In this document: one piece after another, positions 34,873 to 58,820 of the stretch
Numbering within the stretch: the first letter of the stretch is position 1
Layout: each line of letters starts with the position of its first letter
NCBI GenBank assembly: GCA_965217895.1
Contig: CBDCJV010000002.1
Span: 480,001 to 544,000, forward strand
From: Waterburya sp.
GTDB taxonomy: Bacteria; Cyanobacteriota; Cyanobacteriia; Cyanobacteriales; Xenococcaceae
Direction of reading: 5' to 3'
Length of the DNA stretch: 64,000 nucleotides
The notes under the pieces: model-generated
Seen by the model: only the letters and a program-made list of their open reading frames with translations
Database searches by the model: none
What the model was told of the DNA's origin: nothing
Made by a program: the position numbers and the translations under genes

Positions 34873-34888
34873 TGAAGAACTTGTGAGG
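34873..34888 (-). promoter_or_regulatory. Island box CCTCACAAGTTCTTCA upstream of hsp20
   Basis: Followed after 11 nt by TATTCT; one of six copies. Confidence 0.75.
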
Positions 34889-34916
34889 ATTATCTAATTA
34901 TTAGTTTATATGATGA

Positions 34917-35387
34917 TTAATTACTGCTCGATGTCTTTGGAGTACTGGTGTTATTAGGGTTTACAGACTGCTTAAAGCTATCGATCTTAACTAAGCTAGG
35001 ATCGATTTGTACAACACTAATATTCATACTGAGGACATCTTTAGCATAATAACTAACACCGCGATATTCTAGTTTGATACTAGGCTGAGAAATATAAATC
35101 CTATTTAACTCTGATTGTTTAGTCAAGATGTCATTTAAAGTGCCTGTATAGTCTCCATTTATCCTAATATTTGTCGCTCTGCTGGATTGCCAGTCTAGCT
35201 GATGGCAATTTTCAAAATATTGAACTGTATTCAATTCGCGACAAGTTTCTAAATGCTCGATTTTGTATCTACGCCAAAAGCTAAACGGATTGATGAACCT
35301 AACGTAAGTATCCGCAGCAAACAGTTGCTGGAAGTATTGACCAAAGGGAAAGCTGATTTTTACTAGTCTTTTTTCCTCTATATTCAT
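34917..35387 (-). CDS. Hypothetical protein
   Basis: 156-aa ORF with GGAGA RBS and its own copy of the island box. Confidence 0.65.
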   Translation of the reverse strand: MNIEEKRLVKISFPFGQYFQQLFAADTYVRFINPFSFWRRYKIEHLETCRELNTVQYFENCHQLDWQSSRATNIRINGDYTGTLNDILTKQSELNRIYISQPSIKLEYRGVSYYAKDVLSMNISVVQIDPSLVKIDSFKQSVNPNNTSTPKTSSSN

Positions 35388-35434
35388 TATAAATCTCCGA
35401 TACTTGTGTATATTTTGAGATTAATTGAATAACT

Positions 35435-35450
35435 TGAGAAACTTGTGAAG
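35435..35450 (-). promoter_or_regulatory. Island box variant CTTCACAAGTTTCTCA
   Basis: Followed after 11 nt by TAATCT. Confidence 0.6.
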
Positions 35451-35455
35451 CCAGG

Positions 35456-36688
35456 CTAATTGTGATTTTTAATAGCGTAAGCCTGTTGTGCAATTGCCCA
35501 ATCTTCTTGAGTATGAATTACCAACACTTTTACAGTTGAGTCAACAGCAGCAACATTCATATCGGTAGGATTAGCATTATTTTTATCTAAATTATTTTTA
35601 TCTAAATTCAACTTCAAACCTAGATAGCTCAATCCCGCACAAGTTTGTTCGCGAATTATAGCTGAATTTTCACCCACTCCCGCAGTAAAGACTAAAACAT
35701 CTAAACCATTTATACTGGCTACCATTGCGCCTATAGAACTTTTTAAGCGATGTAGATAAATATCAAGGGCTAATGATGCTCTTTTATTTCCCTCGGCGAT
35801 CGCTTCTGAAATAGCTCTTATGTCCCCAGATATTCCAGAAACTCCTTTTAAACCTGAATTTTGATTTAATATCTGACTTACCTCCTCGAAAACTAAGCTA
35901 TATTCCTGCATCATGTAGAGCGGAATCTGAGGATCGATTGAACCACAGCGAGTACCCATCATTAAGCCTTCCAGGGGAGAAAAGCCCATCGTGGTATCGA
36001 TACAGATCCCGTTATCGATCACAGCCAGAGAACAGCCATTACCTAAATGACAGGTAACAATTTTAAGAGATTCTAATGGTTTCTGAAGAATTTGAGCAGC
36101 GCGGTTAGCGCAATACTCATGGGAAATACCGTGAAAGCCATAACGCTGAATGCCCTTCTCGTAATATTCATAAGGCAAAGGATAAACTTTTGCTGCTTCA
36201 GGGAGCGTTGTATGAAACGCTGTATCAAATACAGCTACTTGAGGTACAGGTACTTCGGGCAGTATTTCTTTGATCGCATTGATGCCTTCGAGATGAGCAG
36301 GATTATGATTGGGAGCAAGGGGAATTAGATCGGCGATCGCCTTTTTAACCTCATCATCAATTGGAGTAGCCTGACTATATTTTGCCCCGCCATGCACTAC
36401 TCGATGACCTACTAAATTGATTTCCTCAAGACTCTCTAAAACTTTAGTTTCTCCCTGAACTAGAGTACTCAATAGAACGGTTAAAGCAGTATCACGCTCT
36501 TGAACTTCAATTTTCTGTTTAATACCGTTACTTTTAACAGTTAAAATACCCCCCGACTGCGCTACCGTCCAATCGAGGTGAGCCGACCATAATGGTTTTG
36601 AAGCAGTGGGGAAAGGTTCTTCAAGAATATAAAGACAGCTTTTTTGGCTGCTAGAGCCTGCGTTTAGAACTAATATGTTCATTCTCAA
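35456..36688 (-). CDS. ackA: Acetate kinase
   Basis: VLNAGSSS, GHRVVHGG, FDTAFH, RYGFHGISH, CHLGNG, FTAGVGEN. Confidence 0.97.
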   Translation of the reverse strand: MRMNILVLNAGSSSQKSCLYILEEPFPTASKPLWSAHLDWTVAQSGGILTVKSNGIKQKIEVQERDTALTVLLSTLVQGETKVLESLEEINLVGHRVVHGGAKYSQATPIDDEVKKAIADLIPLAPNHNPAHLEGINAIKEILPEVPVPQVAVFDTAFHTTLPEAAKVYPLPYEYYEKGIQRYGFHGISHEYCANRAAQILQKPLESLKIVTCHLGNGCSLAVIDNGICIDTTMGFSPLEGLMMGTRCGSIDPQIPLYMMQEYSLVFEEVSQILNQNSGLKGVSGISGDIRAISEAIAEGNKRASLALDIYLHRLKSSIGAMVASINGLDVLVFTAGVGENSAIIREQTCAGLSYLGLKLNLDKNNLDKNNANPTDMNVAAVDSTVKVLVIHTQEDWAIAQQAYAIKNHN

Positions 36689-36743
36689 CCTTTTTCGTAA
36701 GGATTAGTAGTGTTGTCATTAGATAATCCAGAACCTACTCAAA

Positions 36744-37448
36744 TCACAAGGGAATTTTATTGATAACTTTCACTGCTGAATCAAATTCGTAGATAATGGG
36801 GACTCCCGTGGCTAGCTCCAATTTTGGCACTTCTTCAACAGATAATTTGTCTAAATCCATAATTATGGAGCGTAATGAATTACCATGAGCCACGACTAAA
36901 ACCGTTTCGCCATTTTTCAGGTGAGTAAAAATGCGATCTCTAAAGAAAGGTAAAACTCTAGCTCTAGTATCTTCTAGGCTTTCACCCCCTGGAGGTCGAG
37001 TGTTATAGGAGCGTCGCCAGAGATTGACCTGCTCTGCTCCATATTTTGCTGCTGTTTCAGTTTTGTTTAAACCCTGCAATTGCCCATAATACCGTTCATC
37101 TAAGTTTAATGTGGTAAAAATCGGCAATTCTTGAGTGCGATCGCCTTCATATTTGTCCCAATCATGCCAATTGGGATCATTAGTAAAATGTTTAATAATA
37201 GGGGTTTTGCCTCCACAAATTTCACTGCACTCAGTCAAGCAAATAATGGCTGTCTCTATTGCTCTGATTAATAAGCTGGTGAAACAAACGTCTATTCGCT
37301 CGTCGCTTTTACTCAATTTACGAGAGGCGGTAATCGCTTCAGCACGCCCTTTCTTGCTCAGAGGAACATCGACCCAACCTGTAAACCTGTTTTGGGCGTT
37401 CCAAAGGCTTTGTCCATGACGAATTAAAATTAGTCTAGCCACAATCAA
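36744..37448 (-). CDS. gpmA: 2,3-bisphosphoglycerate-dependent phosphoglycerate mutase
   Basis: IRHGQSLWN..RFTGWVDV, ERYYGQLQGLNK, AHGNSLR. Confidence 0.93.
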   Translation of the reverse strand: MIVARLILIRHGQSLWNAQNRFTGWVDVPLSKKGRAEAITASRKLSKSDERIDVCFTSLLIRAIETAIICLTECSEICGGKTPIIKHFTNDPNWHDWDKYEGDRTQELPIFTTLNLDERYYGQLQGLNKTETAAKYGAEQVNLWRRSYNTRPPGGESLEDTRARVLPFFRDRIFTHLKNGETVLVVAHGNSLRSIIMDLDKLSVEEVPKLELATGVPIIYEFDSAVKVINKIPL

Positions 37449-37449
37449 A

Positions 37450-39852
37450 CTATTGAGACCATTTCCAGTTAGTAATCTCTGGCTTATCCATCCCCTGTTC
37501 GTGAGCGTAAGCCAGATTGTCGATAATCTCGTTTTTCATCCGTTCTCTGACATAAACGGCTCTCGAACCAAGTTTTTCGACTCGATCTATAACATCGATG
37601 ATTAAGTTAAAGCGATCTATTTGATTTAGCATCGCTAGCTCTAAAGGCGTATTGATATTACCCTGCTCTTTATAGCCTCTGACGTGAATCCGCTCTTGAT
37701 TAGTGCGACGATAGGCTAGTTTATGAATCAACCAGGGGTAGCCGTGAAAGTTAAAGATTACTGGTTTGTCAGGAGTGAACAGAATATCAAATTCTTTGTT
37801 GGATAAGCCGTGAGGATGTTCACGTTCCGACTGCAAGCGATATAGATCGACCACGTTAATAAACCTAACTTTCAGTTCGGGAAACTCTTCGCGCAATATC
37901 GCTGTGGCTGCCAAAGATTCCATTGTCGGAATATCGCCACAGCAAGCCATAATTACGTCAGGTTCATCTGCTGCTTTTCCACAGTCATCGTTACTCGCCC
38001 AATCCCAAATACCGATACCCTTGGTACAGTGCTTTACCGCTTCATCCATTGTCAGATATTGCAGGTGATTTTGCTTGTCGGCAATGATCACGTTGACGTA
38101 ATCCTTACTCTTCAAACAGTGGTCGGCAACGGATAATAAGCAGTTAGCGTCGGGCGGGAAATAAATGCGGGTAACATCCGCACTTTTGTTTGTTACTACG
38201 TCAATAAAGCCTGGATCTTGATGGGAAAAGCCATTATGATCCTGTCGCCAGACTAAAGAAGATAGCAGCAGATTGAGAGAAGATACGGGAACGCGCCAGG
38301 GAACGTGCTTTTTACAGATTTCCAACCATTTGGCGTGCTGGTTAAACATGGAGTCGATGACGTGAATAAATGCTTCATAACTATGGATAAATCCGTGTCT
38401 GCCAGTAAGCAAATACGTCTCCAGCCAACCTTCAAGGGTATGTTCGCTCAACATCTCCATTACTCTGCCATTGGGTGATAACTGACTGCCATCTTCATCC
38501 TCTGGAAGATAGTCTGCCATCCACGCTTTCTTAGTAACTTCGTAGATATCCTGTAGGCGATTAGAAGCAGTTTCGTCGGGTCCAAAGACGCGAAAGTTGG
38601 TCATGTTGTGCTTCATCACATCTCGTAAAAACTTACCCAATACTCTGGTGTTTTCGACTTCTACCGTTCCTGGCGTTTCCATTTCTATGGCATAATCGTT
38701 AAAGTCAGGCAGCTTGAGATCTTTTCTCAAAAGTCCGCCATTAGCTACAGGATTGGCACTCATGCGTTTAATACCGACTGGAGCGAGTTCTTTGAGTTCG
38801 GGAATCAAAGTACCATGCTCGTCAAACAATTCTTCTGGTTTGTAGTCCTTCATCCACTGTTCGAGAAGCTTTACGTGTTCTGGGTTAGAGTGCATTCCTC
38901 CCATTGGTACTTGATGCGATCTCCAGAATCCTTCTACCTTGTGTCCGTCTACTTCTGCTGGTCCCGTCCAGCCTTTGGGAGTTCGTAAAATAATCATGGG
39001 CCAACGAGGTCGAAAGGCTTTATTTTGGCTACGGGCTTCCTGTTGATATTCTCTAATCTTGACAATGCACTCTTCCATGACTCCCGCCATTTTTTGGTGC
39101 ATGGTTTCGGGGTCTGAACCTTTTACTACATAGGGAGTATAGCCATAGCCTTCAAACAATTTAGTCAACTCTTCCTCACTAATACGAGCCAGAATTGTCG
39201 GGTTGGCAATTTTGTAGCCATTTAGGTTGAGGATCGGCAATACTGCCCCATCGCGGATGGGATTGAGAAATTTGTTGGAGTGCCAAGCCGTCGCCAATGG
39301 TCCTGTTTCTGCTTCCCCATCTCCTACTACACAAGCAACTATTAAATCGGGATTGTCGTAGGCTGCACCAAAGGCATGGGAAACGCTGTAGCCTAGTTCT
39401 CCTCCTTCATGAATTGAACCAGGGGTTTCAGGGGTACAGTGACTGCCGATATAACCAGGAAATGAGAATTGCTTAAAAAACTTTTGCATTCCCGATTCGT
39501 CCTGGCTTTTGTCGGGATAAACTTCGGAATAAGTTCCTTCAAGATATACGGGTCCTAGTACTCCAGGTGCGCCATGTCCTGGTCCTGCAATAAAGATAGA
39601 GTTGAGGTCGTACTTCTTAATCAGGCGATTGAGGTGAATATAGGTAAAGCTAAGTGCGGGAGAAGAACCCCAATGTCCTAACAGTCGTTGTTTGATATGT
39701 TTTGCCTGAAGGGGTTCTTTGAGTAAGGGATTATCTCGCAGATAAATCATGCCCACTGCTAGGTAGTTACAGGCACGCCAATAGGCATCTATTTTGCGAG
39801 CTTCTTCTGTGTTTAGGGCAGTCGTTGAATCTGTAGAGGGAGTAGATACCAT
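37450..39852 (-). CDS. xfp: Xylulose-5-phosphate/fructose-6-phosphate phosphoketolase
   Basis: [40 protein letters not shown]. Confidence 0.97.
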
Positions 39853-39907
39853 GATATTTCTATTAATGAAGGTAAAAACTAATTTGCTAGATCTCTGTAG
39901 CGCGAAA

Positions 39908-40927
39908 CTAAAAATTAAGCTGACTGAAAACTTCTTGGAGAACTTGAGCCGAATGACAAAGCTGTTTCTCTTCTCTAGGGCTTAAATCTAAATTAACAGT
40001 TTTGAGTATACCTTTTTCGCTGACTACTCTTGGTAAACCCAGACACACATTGTCAATACCGTACATTCCATCTACTAAACCGCTAACTGTAAGAACTCTT
40101 TCCTGACTGCGTAGAATCGCTTTAACGATATCGGTTACAACTAAACCGATCGCATAAGAAGTATATCCTTTGCGCTGAATAACGTCATAGGCTGCATTTT
40201 TGACGCGATCGAATATAGCAGTTAATTCTTGGCGATCGCTTTCTTTAAAATTCTCCCAATCTTGGGACAATAATTTTCGACCTGCGACATTCGCTGTACT
40301 CCAGACAGGAACTTCACTATCACCATGTTCGCCGATGATATAAGCATGAACACTACGAGCATCAATATTTAATTTACTTGCTAGCAAAGTGCGAAATCTA
40401 GAGGTATCTAATACCGTTCCCGAACCGATCACTCTAGAACTGGGAAAGTCAGAAATTTTAAGTGCTACGTAGGTCATAATGTCTACGGGATTGGTCACAA
40501 TCAATAGAATAGCGTCTGGACAATATTTGGCTACATCAGCCAAAATATTTTGATAAATAGCAATATTGCGACCTAGTAAATCGAGGCGAGTCTCGCCTGG
40601 TTTTTGCGCTGCGCCAGCCGTAATAATTACGATGTCTGCGTCTTTACCTGCATCAGCTACAGTTCCAGCTACAAGCTCAGTAGGATCGATCAAAGACATA
40701 CCATGAAGCATATCCATGACTTCTCCCTCAACTTTTTGAGTTTCAAGATCTTGCAAGACTAGCTCATCAAAGCAGTTTTGGATCAGTAAGGAATAGGCGC
40801 AGGCTAATCCAACCTGTCCTAAACCAATAATGACTCCTTTACGGGGACGAAGAATATTTGTTGATTCGGCTTCAGAATTGAGAGTAAAAATTTGGTCGAA
40901 CATAAAGCTTGCTTGAGTATTAATCAC
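39908..40927 (-). CDS. ldh: L-lactate dehydrogenase
   Basis: [42 protein letters not shown]. Confidence 0.93.
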
Positions 40928-40933
40928 TAACTA

Positions 40934-41296
40934 TTAACTCATAACCCATTCCAAAGCTCGATCTCTTTCGTCAAAAGTAAAATGCTTGACTTCAATGCTA
41001 TAAAACAAAGTATTACCCAGTGCTGCCAAAGCTTCTAACCATTTGCGATCGCTGACAATTGCTTCTTTTTCAAAATCATTAAGATGCTGCAAACTGAATT
41101 TTAGGTCTTTAATAAATGCACCCAATGACATTCCCGACCAATTCTTGATCTCAGCATAGATTCTTAATTTTCCCTCCTGCTTCAGTCTTGGTTCAATCAA
41201 TTTAGTTATGCGATCGATATCTTCAGTATCAATCCAGCCATCAATATCCAAGCCAATAATATGGTCTGGTTTGTGAGGAATAAGTCGAACAGTCAT
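40934..41296 (-). CDS. STAS/SEC14 (SpoIIAA-like) protein
   Basis: DLKFSLQHLNDFEKEAIVSD..W..EVKHFTFDERDRALEW; start moved to MTVRL after an AGGAG RBS. Confidence 0.85.
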   Translation of the reverse strand: MTVRLIPHKPDHIIGLDIDGWIDTEDIDRITKLIEPRLKQEGKLRIYAEIKNWSGMSLGAFIKDLKFSLQHLNDFEKEAIVSDRKWLEALAALGNTLFYSIEVKHFTFDERDRALEWVMS

Positions 41297-41327
41297 AATT
41301 AATTCTCCTATTTTTTTCAAATCAAGC

Positions 41328-41942
41328 TCATGCACAAACAGTAGTTTCAACACTTTCACTAGAAGCTGAAACTTCTGGGACAGGAGTCTGAACGATCAAA
41401 ACCGAGCAGGGAGAGTGATGCACGACATAGTTGCTAACGCTACCCAAAAACAATTCTTTCAAACCAGAATGTCCTCGTCTGCCAATAACTACAATATCGG
41501 CATGACAAGACTGGGCAAAGTCACAAATAGTTGTGCTTGGATGTCCCGTAATTTGACTAAACTCTGTCTGAACTCCTGCTGCGTTTGCGGAGCTAGAGTG
41601 GGCGGAAATGCTGCTTCGCAAGCAGCTTATTCCACGCCCGCTAGAAGACATCGCTTTTTTCATATAAGAACGCATCATCTTGATTCCTTGCTGCTTAAAC
41701 TCTGACCATTCGCGATCAAATTCTTCGTTGGCTCGACGCATAATTCTCGGATCGACATGAATACAGCGATCTTTATGATGTACAAAGTAAGGAGACATCT
41801 GCGGAGTTCCTGATTCTTCGGCACACAATACATGAAGCAGAATTAAGTTTCCTCCAACAGCTTTAGCTAAAGATAGAGCCTCTTCAAACACCTGTTTACT
41901 TACTGTCGAACGGTCAATTGCCACCAATATTTTTTTGCTCAT
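41328..41942 (-). CDS. Universal stress protein carrying a 22-aa in-frame insertion
   Basis: KKILVAID, ADIVVIGRRGHSGLKELFLGSVSNYVVHHSPCSVLIV. Confidence 0.92.
   Translation of the reverse strand: MSKKILVAIDRSTVSKQVFEEALSLAKAVGGNLILLHVLCAEESGTPQMSPYFVHHKDRCIHVDPRIMRRANEEFDREWSEFKQQGIKMMRSYMKKAMSSSGRGISCLRSSISAHSSSANAAGVQTEFSQITGHPSTTICDFAQSCHADIVVIGRRGHSGLKELFLGSVSNYVVHHSPCSVLIVQTPVPEVSASSESVETTVCA
41584..41649. repeat. 66-bp nested short dispersed repeat inserted in HIP1 (GCG^ATCGC)
   Basis: GCG at 41581-41583 and ATCGC at 41650-41654 flank a GC-rich nested hairpin. Confidence 0.85.
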
Positions 41943-42029
41943 TTTTCAAACCTCTGTTAATAGTTAATAAGCAGCGATCGCCTCTTTCATTAGATTTTCA
42001 AAATTTGAGAGTGTGATTAAGACGCAGAA

Positions 42030-42578
42030 TTAAAATTCATTAGTAAGAAGTTCTTGTTGATCGACTGTTTTTTTTGATTCAGAAGATAATCGCTCGGACT
42101 CGGAATTTACGGAATTACGAACTATCAACACCGAGCAGGGTGCATGATGGGTTACATAGTTACTCACGCTACCAAGAAACATTTCTTTTAATCCTTTGAG
42201 TCCCCGACTACCAACCAAAATTAGATCAGCTGACCAATTACCTGCTAACTCACAGATCATCCGTCCTGGATTTCCAGTCAGTTGAGTAAATTCCGTATCT
42301 ACTCCTCTGGCTGTGGCTTCTTTAGTTAGGTCTTGAAGAAAATTTAGCCCCCATTGTCTATACTCTTTCAACTGTTTTTGGTACGCTTCGTATTCATGAT
42401 TGTCCACCATAGGAAAATAGGTATATGTGAGTAATTCTGGATAGTTCGCTTCCGTTTCGGACATGATATGAAGCAGCATTAATTCTGCATCATTAGTTTG
42501 AGCCAAAGATACAGCAGTCTTAAAAATAGATTGATTGTTTTCAAAGCGTTGTACAGCTACTAAAATTTTGTTAATCAT
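42030..42578 (-). CDS. Universal stress protein
   Basis: ADLILVGSRGLKGLKEMFLGSVSNYVTHHAPCSVLIV. Confidence 0.93.
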   Translation of the reverse strand: MINKILVAVQRFENNQSIFKTAVSLAQTNDAELMLLHIMSETEANYPELLTYTYFPMVDNHEYEAYQKQLKEYRQWGLNFLQDLTKEATARGVDTEFTQLTGNPGRMICELAGNWSADLILVGSRGLKGLKEMFLGSVSNYVTHHAPCSVLIVRNSVNSESERLSSESKKTVDQQELLTNEF

Positions 42579-42606
42579 GATGAATACCTTTTATTGAAGT
42601 TAGGAG

Positions 42607-43155
42607 TCAAGAGTCAGAGGTCAGAAGTTCTTGCTGGTTATCTGCTTTTTCTGACTCTGCCAGGGTTTGTTTGGCATCAACGTTAATTGAGGTTCGCATA
42701 ATTAAAACCGAACAGGGTGCATGATGGGTGACATAATTGCTAACGCTACCGAGAAACATTTCTTTAAGTCCCTTTAGTCCCCGACTACCGACCAAAATTA
42801 GATCGGCTGACCAATTACCTGCAAGTTCGCAAATCATGCGTCCTGGGTTTCCAGTCAGTTGAGTAAATTCCGTATCTACTCCTCTGGCTGTAGCTTCTTG
42901 GGTTAGGTTTTGCAGAAAATCTAATCCCCACTGTTTATATTTAGCCAGCTGTTTCTGATACGTATCGTATTCGCGATCGTCTTCGAGGAAATAATAAGTA
43001 TAAGTAGGCAGTATGGGATAACCTGATTCACTGCTGGAAACAACGTGAACCAGCATTAGCGATGCACCAGTAGTTTGGGCTAAAGATACTGCCGAATTAA
43101 AAATCGATTTACCGTTTTCAGAACGGTCTACGGCTACCAGAATTTTGTTAATCAT
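42607..43155 (-). CDS. Universal stress protein (tandem paralog)
   Basis: Same C-terminal USP motif block as the adjacent gene. Confidence 0.93.
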   Translation of the reverse strand: MINKILVAVDRSENGKSIFNSAVSLAQTTGASLMLVHVVSSSESGYPILPTYTYYFLEDDREYDTYQKQLAKYKQWGLDFLQNLTQEATARGVDTEFTQLTGNPGRMICELAGNWSADLILVGSRGLKGLKEMFLGSVSNYVTHHAPCSVLIMRTSINVDAKQTLAESEKADNQQELLTSDS

Positions 43156-43172
43156 GATAAATACCTCTTAAT

Positions 43173-43207
43173 GAAGTCAGAAGTCAGAAGTCAGGAGTCA
43201 GGAGTCA
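43173..43207. repeat. Heptamer tandem repeat (GA/GAGTCA)n overlapping the ppsA stop
   Basis: gaagtcagaagtcagaagtcaggagtcaggagtca; similar run at about 42603-42628. Confidence 0.8.
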
Positions 43208-45717
43208 AAACAAGATAACTGTTGTTCTACCTCAGCTATTTTTAGTCTAGTTTTGAGGACTGAATCGGGATTGAGACTGATTGAATCAATTCCTTCTTTG
43301 ACTAGAAATTCGGCAAATTCTGGGTAATCGCTGGGTGCTTGACCACAGATGCCGATTTTGCGCTGTTTGAGCTTGGCTACTCCAATTGCCATAGTTAGCA
43401 TGGCTTCTACCGCAGGATTTCGTTCGTCAAATAGATGTGATACTAAAGATGAATCGCGATCGAGTCCCAGGGTAAGCTGAGTCAAATCGTTTGAACCAAT
43501 CGAAAAGCCGTCAAACACTTCGCTAAATTCGGCTGCCAGCATTACGTTACTGGGAAGTTCGCACATGACGTATACTTGCAAATCATTTTCGCCTTTTACT
43601 AGTCCGTGTTTTGCCATTTCTGCTAGCACTTTACGTCCTTCATCGGGAGTGCGACAGAAGGGAATCATCGGAATCACGTTAGTTAAGCCCATTTCGTTGC
43701 GGACTCGTTTAAATGCTTGACATTCTAGGGCGAAGGCTTCGCGGTATTTGGGATCGTAATAGCGACTCGCACCGCGCCAACCCAGCATCGGGTTTTCTTC
43801 TTTTGGTTCAAACTGTTTACCACCCAAGAGATTGGCATATTCATTACTCTTAAAGTCCGACATCCTGACTATCACAGGCTTGGGATAGAATGCTGCGGCG
43901 ATGGTGGCGATACCTCGCGATAGTTTATCTACAAAGAAATCAGGTTTACTGGGGTAGTGGATTGTTTGACGGGCAACAGCCATTTTTTCTTGAGCATCTT
44001 TTAATTCGTCAAACCTCAGTAAAGCCAAAGGATGTACTTTGATGTGGTTGGCAATAATAAATTCTAGCCGTGCCAAACCCACACCGTCACAAGGTAAAGC
44101 TGACAAGCCGAAGGCTGATTCGGGATCGCCCACGTTCATCAAGATCTGAGTTTTGGTTTCAGGCAAGTTATTTAGCTCGATTGATTCTACGTTAAAGGGA
44201 ATTGAACCTGCATAAACTTTGCCCTGTTCTCCTTCAGCACAAGAGACGGTTACTTCTTGTCCTGTCTGAATACTATTGGTGGCATCATTACAGCCGACGA
44301 TCGCAGGAATACCCATTTCACGGGCAATAATAGCAGCATGACAGGTTCTACCACCCTGGTTAGTAACGATCGCACTAGCTTGTTTCATAATGGGTTCCCA
44401 GTCAGGATCGGTTTTGTTGGTAACTAAAACTTCTCCAGGCTGAAACTTATCGATGTCAGTTACTTCCAGAATGACTCTGGCGACACCCGCACCAATTTTC
44501 TCACCCACAGACCTACCTGTGGTTAGGATGTTATCCCCCGCAGCATCTAATTTATATGTCTGCAATACATTGGCAGTTTTTTGAGACTGGACGGTTTCTG
44601 GGCGAGCTTGAACGATGTATAGTTCTCCAGTTAGTCCGTCTTTTGCCCATTCAATATCCATCGGCGTATAGGTATTACGCACTTTTGAATAATAATCTTC
44701 AATCTGACAAGCCCATTTAGCTAGCTGTAAGATTTCATCATCATCAATGGCATATTCGACTCTTTCTAAGTGAGTTGTGGGTACGTTTTTAGTTAATTTA
44801 CTACCGCCAACGTCATACACCATCTTAATTTCTTTACTGCCAAGACGTTTATCTAAAATTGGCTTAAAGCCTTTGTTCAAAGTTGGTTTAAAGACAATAT
44901 ATTCGTCAGGATTGACCGCACCCTGAACCACGTTTTCACCCAAACCATAAGCAGCAGTAATTAAAGCTGCATCTTTAAAACCCGTTTCGGTATCGATGGA
45001 GAACATGACCCCAGAAGTAGCCAAATCCGATCGCACCATCTTTTGTACCCCAACTGAAAGAGCCACATCAAAATGGTCGAAGCCTTTAATACTACGGTAG
45101 GAAATTGCCCGATCTGTAAATAGAGAGGCAAAGCACTTATGACAGGCTTCTAGTACACCTTGAACGTCATGAACATTAAGATAGGTTTCTTGTTGTCCTG
45201 CAAAACTAGCGTCGGGTAAATCTTCGGCAGTGGCAGAAGAACGCACGGCTACGTCAACATTGTAAGTATACTTTTTGCAAACCTCTTTTTCTTCTCCTTT
45301 AAACTGTTCGCAGTAAGAGAAGTCAATACTATTTCTGACACAAAGCTGACTGTAAGCTTCGGTAATCGCCGTATTAAGTTCGGTGGGAAAAGGAGTATTG
45401 AGGATTAATGCCCTGGCTTGTCTGCCCCGCGATCGCAAATTACTCAGATCTTCGACATCTAAATCGGCAAATAGTTGACGCAGCTTGATTTCTAGCCCTG
45501 CCTGTTCGATAAAATAGCGATAGGCATAAGCTGTAGTAGCAAAACCTCCTGGCACATTAATTCCTTGGGGTGTTAGCTGTTGAATCATTTCTCCTAAAGA
45601 GGCATTTTTACCTCCAACGTGAGAAACATCGCTCATTCCTACGTCTTCAAACCAGAGAACTAAAGCTTGTTCTTTATCCTGTTGAGTTTGGCTGTGACGA
45701 TTTGCGGTTACGACCAT
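43198..45717 (-). CDS. ppsA: Phosphoenolpyruvate synthase
   Basis: VGGKNASLGEM, VRSSATAED, GGRTCHAAIIARE, FSIGSNDLTQ, GICGQAPSD. Confidence 0.97.
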   Translation of the reverse strand: MVVTANRHSQTQQDKEQALVLWFEDVGMSDVSHVGGKNASLGEMIQQLTPQGINVPGGFATTAYAYRYFIEQAGLEIKLRQLFADLDVEDLSNLRSRGRQARALILNTPFPTELNTAITEAYSQLCVRNSIDFSYCEQFKGEEKEVCKKYTYNVDVAVRSSATAEDLPDASFAGQQETYLNVHDVQGVLEACHKCFASLFTDRAISYRSIKGFDHFDVALSVGVQKMVRSDLATSGVMFSIDTETGFKDAALITAAYGLGENVVQGAVNPDEYIVFKPTLNKGFKPILDKRLGSKEIKMVYDVGGSKLTKNVPTTHLERVEYAIDDDEILQLAKWACQIEDYYSKVRNTYTPMDIEWAKDGLTGELYIVQARPETVQSQKTANVLQTYKLDAAGDNILTTGRSVGEKIGAGVARVILEVTDIDKFQPGEVLVTNKTDPDWEPIMKQASAIVTNQGGRTCHAAIIAREMGIPAIVGCNDATNSIQTGQEVTVSCAEGEQGKVYAGSIPFNVESIELNNLPETKTQILMNVGDPESAFGLSALPCDGVGLARLEFIIANHIKVHPLALLRFDELKDAQEKMAVARQTIHYPSKPDFFVDKLSRGIATIAAAFYPKPVIVRMSDFKSNEYANLLGGKQFEPKEENPMLGWRGASRYYDPKYREAFALECQAFKRVRNEMGLTNVIPMIPFCRTPDEGRKVLAEMAKHGLVKGENDLQVYVMCELPSNVMLAAEFSEVFDGFSIGSNDLTQLTLGLDRDSSLVSHLFDERNPAVEAMLTMAIGVAKLKQRKIGICGQAPSDYPEFAEFLVKEGIDSISLNPDSVLKTRLKIAEVEQQLSCFDS

Positions 45718-45805: not shown

Positions 45806-45821
45806 TGAAGAACTTATGAGG
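45806..45821 (-). promoter_or_regulatory. Island box CCTCATAAGTTCTTCA upstream of the ppsA-usp-ldh-xfp-gpmA-ackA run
   Basis: Followed after 11 nt by TATAAC. Confidence 0.78.
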
Positions 45822-48356: not shown

Positions 48357-48514
48357 GCTAACTTTCCTTGCTACGCGACTTATATCTGATTATCCCACTC
48401 TAAGCTATGCAAATTTTCTAATTATCCTCGCGATAAAATTGCTTAGAATCGAAAGTCCGATCTATGTCGTATAAAGTAACTAATATTATACATAAATATC
48501 AAACAAAATGTACT

Positions 48515-48760
48515 ATGTCAGACAAAATGACTATCAGCTCTGCTCAATGTCGTGGTGCGCGAGCAATGCTGAATTGGTCACAGGAAGAATTGTCAAAGAA
48601 GGCTCACGTAGCAAGAGCGACCATTGCAGACTTTGAGCGTGAATTTCGCAAGCCTATTGCCAATAATCTTCTCGCTATTCAAAAGGCTCTAGAAAAAGGA
48701 GGGGTAGAATTTATTCAAAACGAAGGAAATGGAGAGGGTATTAAAATTTATCCACGATAA
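48515..48760 (+). CDS. XRE HTH protein (possible controller)
   Basis: SAQCRGARAMLNWSQEELSKKAHVARATIADFE..ALEKGGVEFI; start taken at MSDK. Confidence 0.85.
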   Translation: MSDKMTISSAQCRGARAMLNWSQEELSKKAHVARATIADFEREFRKPIANNLLAIQKALEKGGVEFIQNEGNGEGIKIYPR

Positions 48761-48999: not shown

Positions 49000-51561
49000 T
49001 TAAAGTCCAGGATGATGGAATCGCTGTCTTGCCCATCGCTTAAAGCCTTTGGCTGACAAAACAGATTGATGGCGATCGAAGATACGATAAGCTGCTAATT
49101 TTATGCGGTCTTCAATTAGAAATCCAATTAAAGCATATCCCCAAACAAATAAAGCCCACTTCCAACCAATTGGAGTCATCAGTAAGCCATAAACGGCAAT
49201 GATAGTAGCGATCGCCTGAGTGACCAGTACCGCACCTAATAATATTGATGCGGGTTTGATTGTCCAGAAAGGTCCTCGCGTCCGCGTTACAAAGATGGTG
49301 AGATGACCTGCCACTGAAAGCTTGAGATAAATTAAAGTCTGAATCACTTCTCGGCTGAGTTGAAAATAGGTTTCTCCCAGGTAGAAAAGACCAAAGGATT
49401 CAATTACCCCAGCTAATCCTAATACTGTTGCTACTCCCATAACTACGGGCATATTCCAGGCTTCAGGGCGATCGGCAGAATGAGTGCGGTCATAGGCAAT
49501 TGATAAAATAGCACCATCGTTGAGTAGTGCCAGCAGCACAATCATAATTGCCGTGACTGGGTAAAAGTTAAAGACCAAAATTGATAAGGTCATAAACACC
49601 AGCACTCGTATAGTTTCGGCAATACGGTAGGTAGCATAGCTGTTCATCCGTTGGAAAATTTTGCGACTCTCTTTAATCGCATCTATAATCACCGATAGTC
49701 CTGATGTCAACAGGACAATATCCGCTGCTGCCCTTGCTGCATCAGTAGCACCCGAAACAGCAATACCTGCATCGGCTTTTTTTAGTGCTGGGGCATCATT
49801 TACCCCATCCCCCGTCATGCCTACTATATGACCTTGCTGTTGTAAGACATCAACAATGTGATATTTATGTTCGGGAAAAACCTGGGCAAAACCATCTGCC
49901 TCCTCAATGGCATCAGCAAGCTGTCCGATTTGATGAGGATTGGTTTCGGCAAACATATTAGCATTGAGAATATTTTCCCCTAAGCTCAACTGATGAGCAG
50001 TCTCTTTGGCGATCGCTTGCTGATCTCCAGTGAGCATTTTGATCTTTACTCCCAAATGACGGGCAGCTTCAATCGTAGACTGAGAATCTTCTCGTGGCGG
50101 ATCGAAAAGTGACAGTACGCCGAGAAATTGCCATTGTTCTCGTTCATCGGTGCGAGCTACCCCAAGAGAACGAAACCCGCGCTGGGCAAATTGATTAATT
50201 GTTTGCTCTACTTGATCGGTAATTTGAGGTGCATTGGCTGATAAAGCCAAGATTACCTGGGGCGCACCCTTACTGACTTTAAAATTTCGACCGTTTGCCG
50301 TTCTAACTTCAGCTTCAGTGCGTTTACTAACGGGATCGAAAGGCTGAAAGTGAATAATTTGGTAGTTATCTAAAGTCTGGTTGGCTGGTAAACCACTAAG
50401 CACCGCTAGGTCGATTGGATCTCGATCTTCACTGCGGGAAGCCAATGCCGCACTTAGAATCACCTGTTCTTTGGTAGTTTCTCCAATGCTGAAGGGTTCG
50501 CCCAGAGTTAACTGATTTAGAGTTAACGTACCTGTCTTATCAGAGCAAAGTATATCAATTCCTGCTAGTTCCTCGATCGCAGCCAGACGGCTGACGATAG
50601 CCTGTTTCTTTGCTAGATTTTGCGCTCCTACTGCCATCGTTACCGACAAAACCGTAGGCATAGCTACGGGGATCGAAGCTACAGTTAAAACTAGGGCAAA
50701 TTGTAAGGTTGTAACCATCCCGTCACCGCGAAACACTGCTACTGACAAGATCAGCGTGACGAGGAATAATGCCACCAAAATTAGATAATTACCAATCTTC
50801 AAAACGGCTCGTTGAAAATGGCTGGTAGTGTGGGCAGTTTCTACTAGATGGGCAGTTTTGCCAAAATAGGTATTAGCACCTGTGGCATAGACTAAGCCAT
50901 CGATTTCGCCTCGTTTGAGAACCGAACCTGAATAAACCGTTTCTCCTGAATTTCGAGTGACGATTAATGATTCCCCCGTTAGGGCTGACTGGTCGATCTC
51001 TACCGAATCCCCCTCTAAAAGTCGGGTGTCGGCGGGGACAATATCCCCAATCCGCAAACGGATAATATCTCCTGGCACTAATTCCAGAGCGGAAATAGTT
51101 TTCCAGACTCGATCGCGTTTGACCCGTGCTTTAAGTGCTAACTTGGCTTTGAGAGCAGCGATCGCATTTCCTGCCTGATACTCTTCCCAAAAACCAATAA
51201 TGGCATTAACCACTAACAAAGTTAGAATAATACCAAAATCAGCCCAGTCTCTGACGAGTGCCGAAAGGATTGCAGCTATTTCAATCATCCAGGCGATCGG
51301 ATTCCAAAAATGAGTCAATAATTGCTGTAAAGTACTGGTGCTTGATTCTGCTAACTCGTTGTTACCGTACTTCGACAAGCGAGTTGTCGCTTCAGACTGA
51401 CACAAACCATCAGTAGAACTATCTAACTGAGTTTGTAGTTGAGTTAAGGATAAACTGTTAACCCGCTCTTCAGTTAAGGAAGATTCGTTTGCAGATATAG
51501 AGGTGCGAGCTTGGCTTTGAGAATGGTTTTTCTGGTTACGCGATCGCTGTTTAAATGCCAT
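49000..51561 (-). CDS. Plasma-membrane proton-efflux P-type ATPase (type IIIA)
   Basis: FWNPIAWMIE, SIPVAMPTVLSVTMAVGA, DKTGTLT, PFDPVSKRT, FAQVFPEHKY, YRIAETI, LLNDGAILSIAYD. Confidence 0.93.
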   Translation of the reverse strand: MAFKQRSRNQKNHSQSQARTSISANESSLTEERVNSLSLTQLQTQLDSSTDGLCQSEATTRLSKYGNNELAESSTSTLQQLLTHFWNPIAWMIEIAAILSALVRDWADFGIILTLLVVNAIIGFWEEYQAGNAIAALKAKLALKARVKRDRVWKTISALELVPGDIIRLRIGDIVPADTRLLEGDSVEIDQSALTGESLIVTRNSGETVYSGSVLKRGEIDGLVYATGANTYFGKTAHLVETAHTTSHFQRAVLKIGNYLILVALFLVTLILSVAVFRGDGMVTTLQFALVLTVASIPVAMPTVLSVTMAVGAQNLAKKQAIVSRLAAIEELAGIDILCSDKTGTLTLNQLTLGEPFSIGETTKEQVILSAALASRSEDRDPIDLAVLSGLPANQTLDNYQIIHFQPFDPVSKRTEAEVRTANGRNFKVSKGAPQVILALSANAPQITDQVEQTINQFAQRGFRSLGVARTDEREQWQFLGVLSLFDPPREDSQSTIEAARHLGVKIKMLTGDQQAIAKETAHQLSLGENILNANMFAETNPHQIGQLADAIEEADGFAQVFPEHKYHIVDVLQQQGHIVGMTGDGVNDAPALKKADAGIAVSGATDAARAAADIVLLTSGLSVIIDAIKESRKIFQRMNSYATYRIAETIRVLVFMTLSILVFNFYPVTAIMIVLLALLNDGAILSIAYDRTHSADRPEAWNMPVVMGVATVLGLAGVIESFGLFYLGETYFQLSREVIQTLIYLKLSVAGHLTIFVTRTRGPFWTIKPASILLGAVLVTQAIATIIAVYGLLMTPIGWKWALFVWGYALIGFLIEDRIKLAAYRIFDRHQSVLSAKGFKRWARQRFHHPGL

Positions 51562-51661: not shown

Positions 51662-51677
51662 TGAAGAACTTATGAGG
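51662..51677 (-). promoter_or_regulatory. Island box CCTCATAAGTTCTTCA upstream of the H+-ATPase
   Basis: Followed after 11 nt by TAATTT. Confidence 0.78.
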
Positions 51678-51706
51678 GAATTAATAACTGACTAAAGCCG
51701 AAATTT

Positions 51707-54700: not shown

Positions 54701-55588
54701 AGCTAGGGCAATTGTTACCACTGCTGGTAAACCTTCTGGTATAGATGCTACTCCCACACTTACGGCGGTCAGAAACATTAACTTTAAATCTTCTCCCCGA
54801 AGCAAGCCCAGTATGAAAATTGCTGTGACTAGAAACAAAATTGCAATTCCTAGAACCCGCCCTAATACTTCTAAGCGTTGTTGTAGTCGGGTTGGTTCGC
54901 GACCTACAGTTTGAATAGCTCCCGCAATCTGACCTAACTCGGTACTCATTCCAGTTTCGGTAACTACCGCCAGTCCCCGACCATAGGTAACAAATGTTCC
55001 CATGTAAGTCATATTGAGGCGTTCGGCTAGAGGTAGCTCACCTCGATTCAATACCGAAGAATTTTTATCTATGGGTTCTGATTCGCCTGTTAGGGAAGCT
55101 TCCTGAATTCTTAGGCTGGCACTCTCTAACAAACGGCAGTCAGCAGGAATTAGATTTCCCGCTTCTAACATTACAATGTCGCCAGGCACTAACTCACGAG
55201 CTGAAATTTTCTCCACGCAACTATTACGGCGCACCCTAACTGAAGGTACTGCCAGCTTTTTAAGTGCAGCAAGAGACTGTTGGGCTTGATATTCTTGTTT
55301 AAATCCTATCAAAGTATTGAAAATAACGATCGCCAGGATAGCAATAGCATCTTTGAAGTCTCCCAAAATAGCTGAAACTAAGGCAGCAACCAGCAAAATC
55401 AATACCATAGTGGCGGTTAGCTGCTGCCATAAAATTTGCCAGGGACTCTCAATATTTCGCTCGATTAATTCATTAAAGCCATGTTTTTTGAGGCGACGAG
55501 CTACTTCTGATTTGCTCAAGCCTTGTACGGAATTAGTCTTGAGCTTTTGCAATACCTCAATTGAGTTCAACTTGTACCAATTACTCAT
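51707..55588 (-). pseudogene. Cation-transporting P-type ATPase disrupted by IS4
   Basis: Removing the IS and one target copy restores in-frame ..PKNSEAK|SILLRGQ..; DKTGTLT in the 5' part, GDGVND in the 3' part. Confidence 0.92.
53360..54484 (+). mobile_element. IS4-family element, internally deleted
   Basis: Perfect 17-bp TIRs ctgacggggagacaacc / ggttgtctccccgtcag; perfect 9-bp TSD ttttgcttc (53351-53359, 54485-54493); transposase pieces TIDRTQW and IGDREY, central part missing. Confidence 0.93.
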
Positions 55589-55590
55589 GC

Positions 55591-55821
55591 TCAATCTCGG
55601 TTATGCTTGCTAATTTCAACTAAAGATTTAATAGCCTCATTAAGTTGGACTTTAATCTGTTGGACTTCTGCAAAAGCGGAGTTTACTGGGGATGCTTGTC
55701 GATTAATTAAACTCAAATAAACTGGTTCAGTTATTAATTCAGTTGCATCAAGGGCATTCTCAACTTTTTGTATGGCTTCTTCTATCTCACTAGATTGAGA
55801 CAAAACTTTTCTCATATTCAT
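55591..55821 (-). CDS. Hypothetical protein
   Basis: 76-aa helical ORF abutting the ATPase start. Confidence 0.5.
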
Positions 55822-56628: not shown

Positions 56629-56739
56629 TTTTTTCTCCTAGTTAAAAAATTGTTAGTAAGTAAGGTGAATCTCAAGCCTTGTCAGCAAGTAACTTCTTCA
56701 GAGATTGTTTGTGAACAAAAGATTAAATTGAAAGAGTGA

Positions 56740-56828
56740 TGGGGTAATTGGGGTAGTGAAGTTTCTATTTCTCCACCATCTCCCCTACTTCCCTATCTCC
56801 TCTACTACATGCGGCTAAAGCCTTTGTC
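56740..56828. repeat. Composite intergenic repeat, copy 2
   Basis: Same modules as 48840-48970, including an identical 27-mer at 56802-56828. Confidence 0.75.
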
Positions 56829-56867
56829 CACTTCTTTAGCCTTAATGTTTACTTTACAAACAGTTTC

Positions 56868-57239
56868 TCAGTCAGAGTCATGTTTGCAGCAGTAATCAAG
56901 GCAATTAACCGCTTGTTTTGTGAAAACCTTGGACGGATGTACCGCACATTTTAGATATTGGTTTTTAGCTAAAAATCGACAGTTTCTACAGGGAACTTTA
57001 GAAAAGCGTGGAATACTTAAACTGCTCTTATGTGTTGACTTAAATTTTGAAAAGAGCCAAAAAGAACGGCAACATATAAACAAAAGCGATAAAATAATCA
57101 CTAATAAATTACTGTCTACATTATTTATTTGGAGAGGCGAATTCTCTGATTTTTCTTTAATTGGCTGAGTTTCACTTAAGGCTATCCGATCGGTTTTTTC
57201 TAGTAAAGTATGTTTTCCGAAAAAATTGCGGTCAGACAT
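56868..57239 (-). CDS. Membrane-anchored protein with C-terminal Cys motif
   Basis: TM segment then PCRNCRF..YLKCAVHP..AVNCLDY, a motif familiar from cyanobacterial small proteins. Confidence 0.7.
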   Translation of the reverse strand: MSDRNFFGKHTLLEKTDRIALSETQPIKEKSENSPLQINNVDSNLLVIILSLLFICCRSFWLFSKFKSTHKSSLSIPRFSKVPCRNCRFLAKNQYLKCAVHPSKVFTKQAVNCLDYCCKHDSD

Positions 57240-57756
57240 ATCTTTTACCTCATCTTTAAAATTGAATTTAGGTACTTTTGTTTCCTTATCACCTATTCAA
57301 AAATATATGCGATTAGCTCGAACAAGCTGTGGTAGCTTCAAATTCGTAGTTTTTCTTTAATAATTGAAAGATGACAATATTTCTATAGGTATTAAAACAA
57401 CAGACTATTATCGTCTTATCATCTTCGGTAAAGGAATTAAAAGCACTGTGAAAATTGCGTCTAAGTTTGTGATGTATATTGCCAGTGAATTGGCACGACT
57501 GCATGATAATACCTTCATCAAATACTTTATAACGCCAATCTTGGAAATTAGAAATTATTTCATTTATTAAATTCATAATCTAGTAATCTATGAACGTTGT
57601 AATCTTGGTAATACCAATTGTGTGCTTTGAAACTCAACAAGGATGACGATCTTTCTAATTTATTTAAATTATCTTTTTTCCAAATTTTCAGACGATCTGG
57701 TTAGTCTGAAAAGCCCTGAATGCTCTATTCTGTTGTTAAGACTAAGGCAGGATTGT

Positions 57757-58485
57757 TTACCAAGGCACGAGCGATTGCGACACGCTGTTGTTGTCCGCTT
57801 GTTGCAGTTCTAATGCAGCTTGTGCTGCATCTCTAGTGGCTTGTTTCTGGACTACAGTTTGCTCGGAAATTGCTCCCTCACTTAACAGACTCTGATTGCG
57901 TTGCAAATCGTCTTCTGCCAGATGTAAGTCTACTTCGGCTTGACTTAGTTGCGCTTGTGCTTGGGCAATATCTTCGCTGCGATTCCCTGCTTCTAACTTT
58001 TGTAGATTGGCTTTAGCTTCGTCGAGTTGTGCCTGTCCCTGGGCAATGTCTTCACTTCGATTGCCGTTTATCAGTTTATTGAGATTGGCTTCTTGTTGGG
58101 CTAATTGAGCGCGAGCTTGAGTTAACTGCCTTTGAAGGTCTGAATCATCCATATAAGCTACAATTGCACCTTCTTCGACGCGATCGCCTTCTTTAACTAA
58201 TAATTGTTTTAAATAACCCGAAGTTTTGGGACTTAAATTAATAGTGCGTTCGGCTTCTACCGCACCATTAGCAGAGATGGTAATCGGCATACTCTTCTGT
58301 TGTACTGTCGTCGTTACCAACTGACTATTAGTATTTTGGGGTGCAACTACTCGATAAATTATCAATCCACCACCTGCGATTCCACCCGCTAACACTAAAC
58401 CAATTAACCAACGAGATTTTAACTGTTTGGGTAAAAATTTATACCAGGTATTAGAACGAAAAGATTGAGATTGTGGAGAAGTCAT
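57757..58485 (-). pseudogene. Truncated HlyD/RND periplasmic adaptor subunit
   Basis: NLSPKTSGYLKQLLVKEGDRV lipoyl half and coiled-coil GNRSEDIAQ repeats; second lipoyl half and beta-barrel missing. Confidence 0.8.
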
Positions 58486-58771
58486 AGTAATGATTCCTGA
58501 TAGAGATAATTAGAAACCGCAGTCTTTAAATAAGCTCGTTAGGTAAATAAAATAATTTAAATATTTTGGTAAGAACGATTAAACATATTGAAGTTTCTAT
58601 AGTTAAATTTTAAGCAAGCCCCTCGCTCTACCACATGGATCGATCTTCCCAATTTTATTTAGTACCAAAGTCCTATAAATTTTTACTCCTAAAATCAAAA
58701 CCTTTTATTTACCAATATTTTCGCCTTCTTTTGATCGAGAGTTTGAACATTATGAGATTAGAAAAAAACTT

Positions 58772-58820
58772 TGAAGAATTTATGAGGGAGAAATATTTTG
58801 TGTTCCTCATAAGTTCCTCA
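58772..58820. promoter_or_regulatory. Back-to-back pair of island boxes serving divergent promoters
   Basis: CCTCATAAATTCTTCA (minus, 58772-58787, +11 nt TAATCT) and CCTCATAAGTTCCTCA (plus, 58805-58820, +11 nt TAAGTT). Confidence 0.78.

Follow-up and report, generated by a model that had tools for sequence, protein, structure and literature searches.

The DNA analysed here is a window of 64,000 nucleotides from the cyanobacterium Waterburya sp. (family Xenococcaceae; assembly GCA_965217895.1, contig CBDCJV010000002.1, positions 480,001 to 544,000). Its right half contains a phosphoenolpyruvate (PEP) synthase operon, a proton-efflux ATPase gene and a glycogen phosphorylase unit, and in front of these and three further reading frames stand six copies of a short direct-repeat box (Table 1). 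A sequence-only reading of the window had taken this box for the operator of a fermentation and acid-stress regulon controlled by one regulator. The analysis described here suggests that the box is the operator of an RcaC-like activator of the OmpR/PhoB family, with a regulon that extends well beyond the window.

A direct-repeat box with fixed promoter spacing

Each box and hexamer listed by the sequence-only reading was recovered at exactly the position it had given, with 0, 3, 0, 0, 1 and 1 mismatches to its consensus for boxes 1 to 6, respectively. The spacer between box and hexamer, which it had described as exact, is 11 nt at 6/6 boxes, and the hexamer conforms to TANNNT at five of the six, the exception being the TATAAC of box 3, which ends in C. 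Matches with at most one mismatch number five in the window and zero in 60/60 order-2 Markov simulations. The left half of the window is empty, as had been reported: a model built from 198 sites of other genomes gives only the six boxes a score of at least 9. Mean pairwise identity among the six sites is 0.87 within the box and 0.34 in the upstream and downstream flanks; the flanks are unrelated, and the six boxes are therefore not copies of a repeated element. Boxes 5 and 6 are divergent neighbours that stand back to back, with 17 bp between them. The refined element reads (T)YYTCAYAA(G/C)TTCYTCA-N11-TANNNT, a direct repeat with a period of 11 bp lying over the −35 region, in which TCA occupies box positions 3–5 and 14–16 in 99–100% of the 198 sites outside this genome. 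No sigma-70 −35/−10 pair was found between 45600 and 46000 around box 3, the one promoter examined in this way.

Table 1 Features of the window and of the linked and core relays. Positions are those of the window, except those prefixed C2.
Feature	Position	Strand	Remarks
Box 1	34873..34888	-	CAC variant; -10 TATTCT at 34861-34856; ahead of hsp20 remnant
Box 2	35435..35450	-	CAC variant; -10 TAATCT at 35423-35418; starts 5 nt past ackA stop
Box 3	45806..45821	-	CAT variant; -10 TATAAC at 45794-45789; ahead of ppsA
Box 4	51662..51677	-	CAT variant; -10 TAATTT at 51650-51645; ahead of H+-ATPase
Box 5	58772..58787	-	CAT variant; -10 TAATCT at 58760-58755; ahead of HlyD-like frame
Box 6	58805..58820	+	CAT variant; -10 TAAGTT at 58832-58837; ahead of DUF5335
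hsp20 remnant, 49 codons	34646..34795	-	Likeness to longer copy; no NCBIfam hit
156-aa open reading frame, unclassified family	34917..35387	-	Behind box 2
Probable operon ppsA-USP-USP-USP-SpoIIAA-like-ldh-xfp-gpm-ackA	35456..45717	-	Box 3 promoter
Type IIIA proton-efflux P-type ATPase	49000..51561	-	TIGR01647 above cut-off
Short HlyD-like frame, probable remnant	57757..58485	-	Behind box 5
DUF5335 - PII-like - glycogen phosphorylase (glgP) unit	58878..62210	+	Behind box 6
Regulator A, island paralogue	C2:568999		25 kb right of window
Kinase A, CBS-GAF-PAS	C2:587268		Linked to regulator A
Small receivers linked to A	C2:591752 and C2:592410
Core relay: regulator B, CBS-GAF-PAS kinase B, small receiver	C2:4809562-4816417		Far from island

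The putative regulon in this genome and in other cyanobacteria

A box-plus-promoter model, trained on the 198 sites from other genomes, which had been picked with a box-only matrix from this genome so that the −10 was not used, finds 27 sites in this genome against 1 in the reversed control. Twenty-three of the 27, including the six in the window, fall inside one island of ~165 kb (C2:514–680 kb). With a matrix from the six boxes alone there are 35 genome hits scoring at least 16 against 10 in the reversed control. Of the 29 hits outside training, 16 are followed by TANNNT after 11 nt, against a background of 3.1% and a maximum of 3/29 for any other spacer, and 17 fall in C2:509–680 kb; outside this genome, TANNNT at spacer 11 follows 152/198 sites. 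To the right of the window, island boxes stand ahead of genes for a ribosome hibernation factor, an antiporter, universal stress proteins (USPs), a HlyD-ABC unit, DUF4327, hypC, hsp20 and pentapeptide proteins. The first open reading frames (ORFs) behind the 27 sites include no photosystem-core, phycobiliprotein, phosphate, manganese, copper, nickel, nitrogen-control or SOS genes. That the earlier reading did not recognise the box as HLR1/RpaB, Pho, NtcA or LexA agrees with this absence of hallmark targets, the comparison being one of targets rather than of box sequences; hallmark targets of the SphR, ManR, CopR, NrsR and ChlR regulons are likewise absent behind the 27 sites. Of the proposed fermentation and acid-stress regulon, the fermentation half is supported, and for acid stress the H+-ATPase is the one piece of support.

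Other genomes widen the regulon considerably. The exact box occurs in 15/24 relatives of the genus (control 0), and the box with N11 and TANNNT in 57/301 genomes sampled from the phylum, the control matching once each in 5 genomes; by family, the full element is found in 28/38 and 15/19 genomes of two families and in 0/18 and 0/17 of two others. At nifJ, which encodes pyruvate:ferredoxin oxidoreductase (PFOR), a box lies within 450 nt upstream in 50/64 loci (control 0; 66 named loci were returned and 2 dropped for want of upstream DNA), and 45 of these 50 boxes have TANNNT at spacer 11. Boxes in other genera also head USP-hoxEF, nifJ-DHODH-pfk, pflB, ppsA, xfp, feoB and hydrogenase maturation genes. 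The ppsA box is selective, being present at one paralogue in 5/5 genomes and at a second paralogue in 0/4, and a box at feoB, predicted from expression data, was then found at 4/4 split-feoB loci and 0/3 full-length feoAB loci. The regulon outside this genome is of a fermentation and hydrogen type (nifJ, hox, pflB, ppsA, feoB), broader than the one first proposed; it reaches well past the island and is conserved across several cyanobacterial orders.

Comparable islands occur on plasmids. The Stanieria pSTA7437.01 island has 12 sites with TA in 42 kb (control 0) and an RcaC-like regulator aboard, and Acaryochloris pREB4 has 19 sites in 138 kb (66–204 kb) near hox, N-ATPase, ppsA, glgP and USP genes, also with a regulator aboard. 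Islands of Chroococcidiopsis CCNUC1, Nostoc C052, Kovacikia and Leptolyngbya boryana have fewer boxes, likewise with such a regulator. pREB4 has been named a fermentation module, with a sigma factor and a PAS kinase guessed as its regulators, in a report whose available passages on pREB4 do not mention a box (PMC8949462). A 301-bp query around boxes 5 and 6 yields only short matches of 23–64 bp in other genomes. Separately, 14/14 genomes of one genus (family f18, genus g18) have 1–3 CAT-type boxes; in the one genome opened (L030, L031), these adjoin kinase-receiver clusters, one of which has an RcaC-like gene with a related helix, and this arrangement is possibly a minimal, divergent version of the system.

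RcaC-like regulators as candidate readers of the box

From the tandem half-sites over the −35 region, the sequence-only reading had argued for an OmpR/PhoB-type activator encoded elsewhere, and the best candidates are indeed winged-helix OmpR/PhoB-type regulators outside the window, which itself encodes no DNA-binding response regulator. Its assumption of a single regulator is less secure, as there are perhaps two paralogous readers. This genome has two RcaC-like proteins, A and B (receiver, winged helix, Hpt, receivers), and one box sits between regulator B and kinase B.

A regulator-kinase fusion, first met beside the hox operon of another genome (G030), connects this architecture to the distribution of the box. 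The panel comprised 36 genomes reached through their nifJ loci, 23 with and 13 without a box at nifJ. A fusion orthologue with at least 72% identity is present in 21/36 genomes, and 21/21 of these have 3–21 boxes, while 14 of the 15 genomes without it have 0–2, the exception (G360) having 4. The targets persist when box and regulator are lost: hoxF is retained in 5/5 box-less, fusion-less genomes, and every panel genome also has nifJ. Most hox loci from the box-less genomes are too short to include the promoter. The middle part of the fusion gave no match in five fusion-less genomes, in a search made without a positive control. Genes for a small receiver, TamB and an ABC transporter come after the fusion gene in Nostoc parmelioides. 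The gene order alr2428-alr2429-all2430-alr2433 is given for Nostoc PCC 7120 in excerpts of a report that lists alr2428 merely as an annotated hybrid sensor and regulator (PMC12267927); as the two orders are the same, the fusion is very likely Alr2428, and the box is presumably present in Nostoc PCC 7120, judging from its relatives.

The regulators share a recognition helix, E(E/D/G)AVRTHIK(G/T)LR, which recurs in three groups of a tree built from 108 sequences of receiver plus helix, a set that covers the family incompletely (the top matches listed and plasmid loci) and includes one unrelated OmpR. One group unites the fusion clade with proteins from Acaryochloris, Kovacikia, Chroococcidiopsis and Nostoc C052, and the others are clade B, whose helix is identical to that of several fusions, and clade A. 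A box lies within 3.5 kb of the start of 22/38 regulators with the AVRTHIK helix, compared with 5/70 other paralogues, and around a paralogue in Gloeothece that has a different helix and lacks an island, no site scores above 12.3. The reader probably belongs to the AVRTHIK helix class. RcaC-like families are large, with 3–14 paralogues per genome, and other members were tried and set aside. Island paralogue A as sole reader is contradicted by its presence in 4 genomes of the genus, where 16/26 have at least 10 boxes. An RcaC-like gene in a ppsA operon is patchy (5 genomes at 64% identity or more, one with 0 boxes), and RcaC itself has another helix and belongs to another clade. Of the short OmpR paralogues, one also occurs in box-poor genomes and others rarely have a box nearby, with those at C2:5166638 and C2:4974332 left out of the genome-by-genome profiling.

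The four CAT and two CAC boxes of the window reflect a wider pattern. CAT sites number at least 10 in only 4/26 genomes of the genus and 0–4 in the others; as fractions of all sites they are 10/18 (G000), 12/20 (G008), 17/39 (G014) and 15/23 (G022). Clade A was known in three of these four genomes and was predicted and then found in G022, where the gene is cut by a contig end and carries the helix of A. The Stanieria island, which also has A, has CAT at 11/12 sites. The CAT variant may thus travel with island paralogue A, a pattern that could equally reflect shared island ancestry or differing specificity. A rule that assigns CAT or CAC by a single residue fails, since Nostoc C052 combines a KG helix with CAT boxes, and only the correlation stands.

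Sensor domains and expression data

In every fusion inspected, a PAS domain stands directly before the kinase core, with FixL and DosP as its best solved relatives. The fusion PAS matches FixL with an E value of 4e-21 and the PAS of kinase B does so with 1.6e-14, the proximal (haem-ligand) histidine being aligned in both. Kinase B has the sole FixL-like PAS in this genome, and the domain is kept in the two relatives checked. This predicted sensor anatomy points to a haem gas sensor rather than to acid stress. In a 2004 study, a PAS protein of Anabaena, perhaps Alr2428 itself, reportedly bound haem. Kinase A (L003:3268-7608) lacks a FixL-like PAS and has four CBS repeats, a GAF domain with DPCF and a second cysteine, as is typical of cyanobacteriochromes, several PAS domains and a second GAF; it is possibly a light-plus-adenylate sensor. 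Another match to the FixL-like PAS is the solved PAS of a multi-sensor kinase (10JX/10JY), with an E value of 1e-13 in the case of kinase B.

Start sites offer a limited comparison. Predicted starts lie 63, 67 and 52 nt before the USP gene in three hox promoters, and rapid amplification of cDNA ends reportedly places the start of alr0750 at 66 nt, a value that these predictions would fit. The edges of Acaryochloris transcripts are of coarse resolution; for two genes they lie 13–18 nt past the predicted start, and for a third gene upstream of the box. A 1,716-row subset of a Fischerella start-site table includes no box-bearing promoters.

Published expression data, cited here from excerpts and supplementary tables, show that these genes change together. 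One hour after Nostoc PCC 7120 had been transferred by washing from 3% CO2 to air, nifJ (alr1911) was down 42-fold, the hox clusters 74-fold, ppsA (all0635) 107-fold and the alr2118-asr2120 iron transporter 43-fold, for which the authors suggested LexA or CyAbrB (PMC7699953). Since this step-down also meant washing a dense culture into fresh medium (PMC7699953), the effect of CO2 is not isolated, and the assignment of box-led paralogues to alr2118 and all0635 is our inference. The hox and nifJ genes also cluster together in a calcium-shift study (PMC4915528). In Acaryochloris, the box-led genes mostly fall in sealed O2 flasks (PMC5295598). The expression data leave the signal unfixed.

A proposed phosphorelay and its alternatives

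We propose, with a probability of about two in three, that an RcaC-like activator of the OmpR/PhoB family uses the box as its operator and drives a fermentation or low-energy programme, with a haem PAS probably reporting oxygen. Two winged-helix domains would bind head to tail on the half-sites 11 bp apart, replacing the −35 hexamer, and the tandem-bound regulator would bring the housekeeping RNA polymerase to a weak −10 of the TANNNT type; the constant 11-nt spacer would presumably hold both proteins on one face of the DNA. The kinase would be turned on by a drop in oxygen or, in a close rival version, by carbon or energy status, and from it phosphate would flow along a putative His-Asp-His-Asp route through the small receiver and Hpt to the N-terminal receiver. 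The programme would comprise glycogen breakdown, PEP synthase, phosphoketolase–acetate kinase, lactate dehydrogenase and proton export in this genome, and PFOR, pyruvate formate-lyase (PFL), bidirectional hydrogenase and FeoB in other genera, where the sites are observed and their regulation is predicted. In Nostocales, the reader would be one regulator-kinase fusion (Alr2428 by synteny) with a small receiver; the window genes would take their core input from regulator B, to which paralogue A may add its own. The FixL-like haem PAS of the fusion and of kinase B would probably report oxygen, giving a relay wired like RcaE-RcaF-RcaC but doing the job of FixLJ or DosSR. That oxygen, through the haem PAS, is the main input has a little less than an even chance. 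More tentatively, filamentous and rock- or mat-dwelling cyanobacteria may possess a phosphorelay devoted to oxygen sensing by haem, with Alr2428 and the split versions of it, that switches on hydrogenase, PFOR, PFL, PEP synthase, phosphoketolase and FeoB through the box; mobile fermentation islands would plug into it, some with their own paralogue, light- or adenylate-sensing kinase and CAT-for-CAC box, rewiring one promoter grammar to different signals.

Several observations weigh against this proposal. The contrast of 21/21 with 1/15 genomes comes from a panel picked by box status at nifJ, with post hoc cut-offs and non-independent kin, and carries no P value. This genome has no strict fusion orthologue, the best match (61%) being a short OmpR found genus-wide, and clades A, B and the fusion form no supported single clade; what links them is therefore the helix they have in common, the PAS and proximity. 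Regulator B also occurs in box-poor relatives with 2–3 sites, so that its presence does not predict regulon size. G360 has its 4 boxes without a fusion or a FixL-like PAS, a second genome (G341, locus L246) has a FixL-like kinase near RcaC-like genes yet 0 boxes under the pattern used, and the three pREB4 stretches examined have no FixL-like PAS. At all 4 feoB loci with a box (L256, L257, L258, L261), GAGAAT stands in place of TANNNT, and a second factor or a different sigma is perhaps needed there. In Acaryochloris kept for 7 days in N2-bubbled microoxia in the light, 7/10 box-led first genes were down (log2 −1.4 to −2.4), 2 up and 1 flat, in a table that holds differentially expressed genes only and in which most other pREB4 rows examined rose (PMC5295598 Table S3). 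These genes are co-regulated, but in the direction opposite to low-oxygen induction.

The same box and reader class might respond mainly to carbon or energy status or to light (CO2/bicarbonate, adenylates via CBS, bilin GAF), which would change the signal only and which we regard as a serious possibility, at somewhat below even odds. It would suit the CBS repeats and GAF domains in kinases A and B and in the pREB4 kinase, the cyanobacteriochrome-like first GAF of kinase A, the fall of the Acaryochloris genes under N2 bubbling and, for the most part, in sealed flasks with O2, and the collapse of the Nostoc genes on CO2 step-down (PMC7699953). However, that step-down included the wash into fresh medium, the FixL-like PAS is the one sensor domain kept beside the kinase core in every fusion inspected, and PFOR, PFL, Hox and FeoB have established oxygen-sensitive or anaerobic functions.

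Readings that change the factor or the nature of the site are less probable. Another factor, such as a single-domain OmpR or a CRP or LysR protein, could bind the box, with the RcaC-like genes as mere members or neighbours of the regulon. The size of the family, the failure of A, B and the fusion to form one clade, and CRP-like genes 5 kb from one box in this genome and on pREB4 would allow this, but we consider it improbable given the panel profile of the fusion, the ability of the helix class to predict a nearby box, the failure of a second candidate (the ppsA-operon paralogue) in the same profile test, and a direct repeat unsuited to CRP. The predicted RcaC-like factor is very probably an activator. 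A repressor blocking the −35 region until stress releases it would also cover the position that the box occupies, and OmpR-family proteins are able to repress, but the strictly fixed spacer and the lack of a −35 hexamer at the one promoter examined suit recruitment and make repression quite unlikely. Fixed spacing to the −10, together with sigma-70 family genes on pREB4, could further suggest an alternative sigma factor with the box as its −35 element; we give this little credence, as the element is a tandem repeat of 16–18 bp, its −10 is an ordinary TANNNT, and no sigma gene was seen among the listed island ORFs, judged by eye and a partial Pfam scan. Finally, IS630 and IS4 pieces and an integrase in the island might hint at an origin of the copies in a repeated or mobile element, or else in chance, an explanation with a negligible share of the probability when set against the unrelated flanks, the 23–64-bp matches of the 301-bp query and the box before nifJ at 50/64 loci.

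Genes of the window and the island

The gene behind box 1, called hsp20 in the sequence-only reading, is hsp20-like but is a 49-codon remnant before an insertion sequence (IS) transposase of the IS630 family; a longer copy stands behind the same kind of box at C2:678335. The IS630-family transposase is in pieces (33647–34587), directly after the truncated hsp20. The 156-aa ORF behind box 2 has three copies in the genome (window 34917–35387; L001:11830-12300; L007:14795-15268), each behind a box and each followed by a second box and hsp20 or USP. Family searches with it gave no assignment, and a weak YRGV-motif likeness to one DUF4278 protein is the strongest found; the protein is a putative core member of the regulon. 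Judging from gene spacing, ppsA to ackA are probably co-transcribed from the box 3 promoter. The HlyD-like frame begins 302 nt from box 5, and no open frame spans the gap. A PII-like protein (59232–59531) lies between DUF5335 and glgP and may, as a guess, regulate glycogen breakdown.

Other elements interrupt the island. The stretch at 46400–48760, between the H+-ATPase and ppsA, holds a DNA methylase, a 306-aa ORF without a Pfam hit (a possible restriction enzyme) and an HTH gene, and is probably an inserted restriction-modification cassette. A gene for a Ca-type P-type ATPase (51707–55594) is broken into 377- and 555-aa pieces, split by an IS4-family transposase remnant at 53575–54464. An integrase, toxin-antitoxin-like pairs and helicase-like remnants break the island at C2:592.8–609 kb (L003:8842 to L004:5000), a probable integrated element. 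A psbA-like gene in three pieces (L004:14326-15398) lies behind a box-led hsp20, and in the Stanieria island psbA is intact and follows a Rieske gene with a box in front.

Relationship to known systems

Induction of cyanobacterial hydrogenase, PFOR and fermentation has so far been credited to general factors, namely LexA, CyAbrB and SigE, and LexA, CyAbrB1/2, SigE and ChlR overlap with the box regulon in the targets hox and nifJ. These four are named for hox, nifJ and low-oxygen genes in passages that mention neither a two-component activator nor this box (PMC4463661, PMC7699953, PMC13421787). The ChlR box is a palindrome, and a 2026 redox review, in the parts available, assigns nifJ to CyAbrB2 and hox to CyAbrB1/2 or RpaA, with FixL at 0 occurrences (PMC13421787). 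Searches of the open literature yielded no description of the box, its regulon or this combination of parts, subscription journals and curated regulon databases being outside the search. The proposal would supply a sharp box, a regulon with about 3–40 promoters in each genome and, in a genetically tractable model strain, alr2428 as a named candidate, and with these a candidate, testable master switch for cyanobacterial fermentation. It bears on the dark-anoxia survival of mat, crust and rock cyanobacteria and on hydrogen and lactate production, and the element is a potential strong conditional promoter, with a 40- to 100-fold range in published data.

The closest relative in wiring is the RcaE-RcaF-RcaC system of type III chromatic acclimation in Fremyella diplosiphon, which has the same receiver–winged helix–Hpt–receiver–receiver layout, a small receiver and a GAF/PAS kinase, and whose L-box likewise consists of two 7-bp half-sites 11 bp apart. 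It differs in its phycobiliprotein-type targets and in having no haem-like PAS. The RcaC beside L-boxes in Calothrix NIES-2100 has the helix ATVRSHIRR, unlike the AVRTHIK found here, and belongs to another clade (support 0.99), with an N-terminal part that shares 50–56% identity with A, B and the fusion. The L-box motif, confirmed before cpcB2-like and pcyA-like genes in Calothrix NIES-2100, has 0 exact copies in this genome. PhoB and the Pho box of E. coli share the winged-helix fold and tandem half-sites with a TCA core that replace the −35; Pho boxes have a 10-nt spacing to the −10, and an 18-bp reading of the present box also gives 10 nt. The Pho box has another sequence, and there are no phosphate genes among the 27 sites here.

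On the sensory side, the likeness to FixL-FixJ(-FixK) of rhizobia and to the haem PAS of DosP lies in FixL as the best solved relative, the proximal histidine and a hypoxia-type regulon. FixJ has a LuxR-type output, in contrast to the Trans_reg_C/OmpR-type winged helix with Hpt relay, direct-repeat box and predicted haem PAS described here; no LuxR-type FixJ was found beside or fused to the kinases, where the output is Trans_reg_C. In gene content, DosS/DosT-DosR of mycobacteria and the lxa locus of Burkholderia cenocepacia have a similar set of USPs, Hsp20, cation ATPases, PEP synthase/dikinase, phosphofructokinase and ribosome hibernation factor. DosR is a LuxR-type regulator with a palindromic box and haem-GAF sensors, compared with the OmpR-type regulator, direct repeat and haem-like PAS here. 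The parts, an OmpR-type operator, an Rca-type relay, a FixL-type PAS and a DosR-like gene set, are each known, and their combination, the box and its regulon are new as far as searched.

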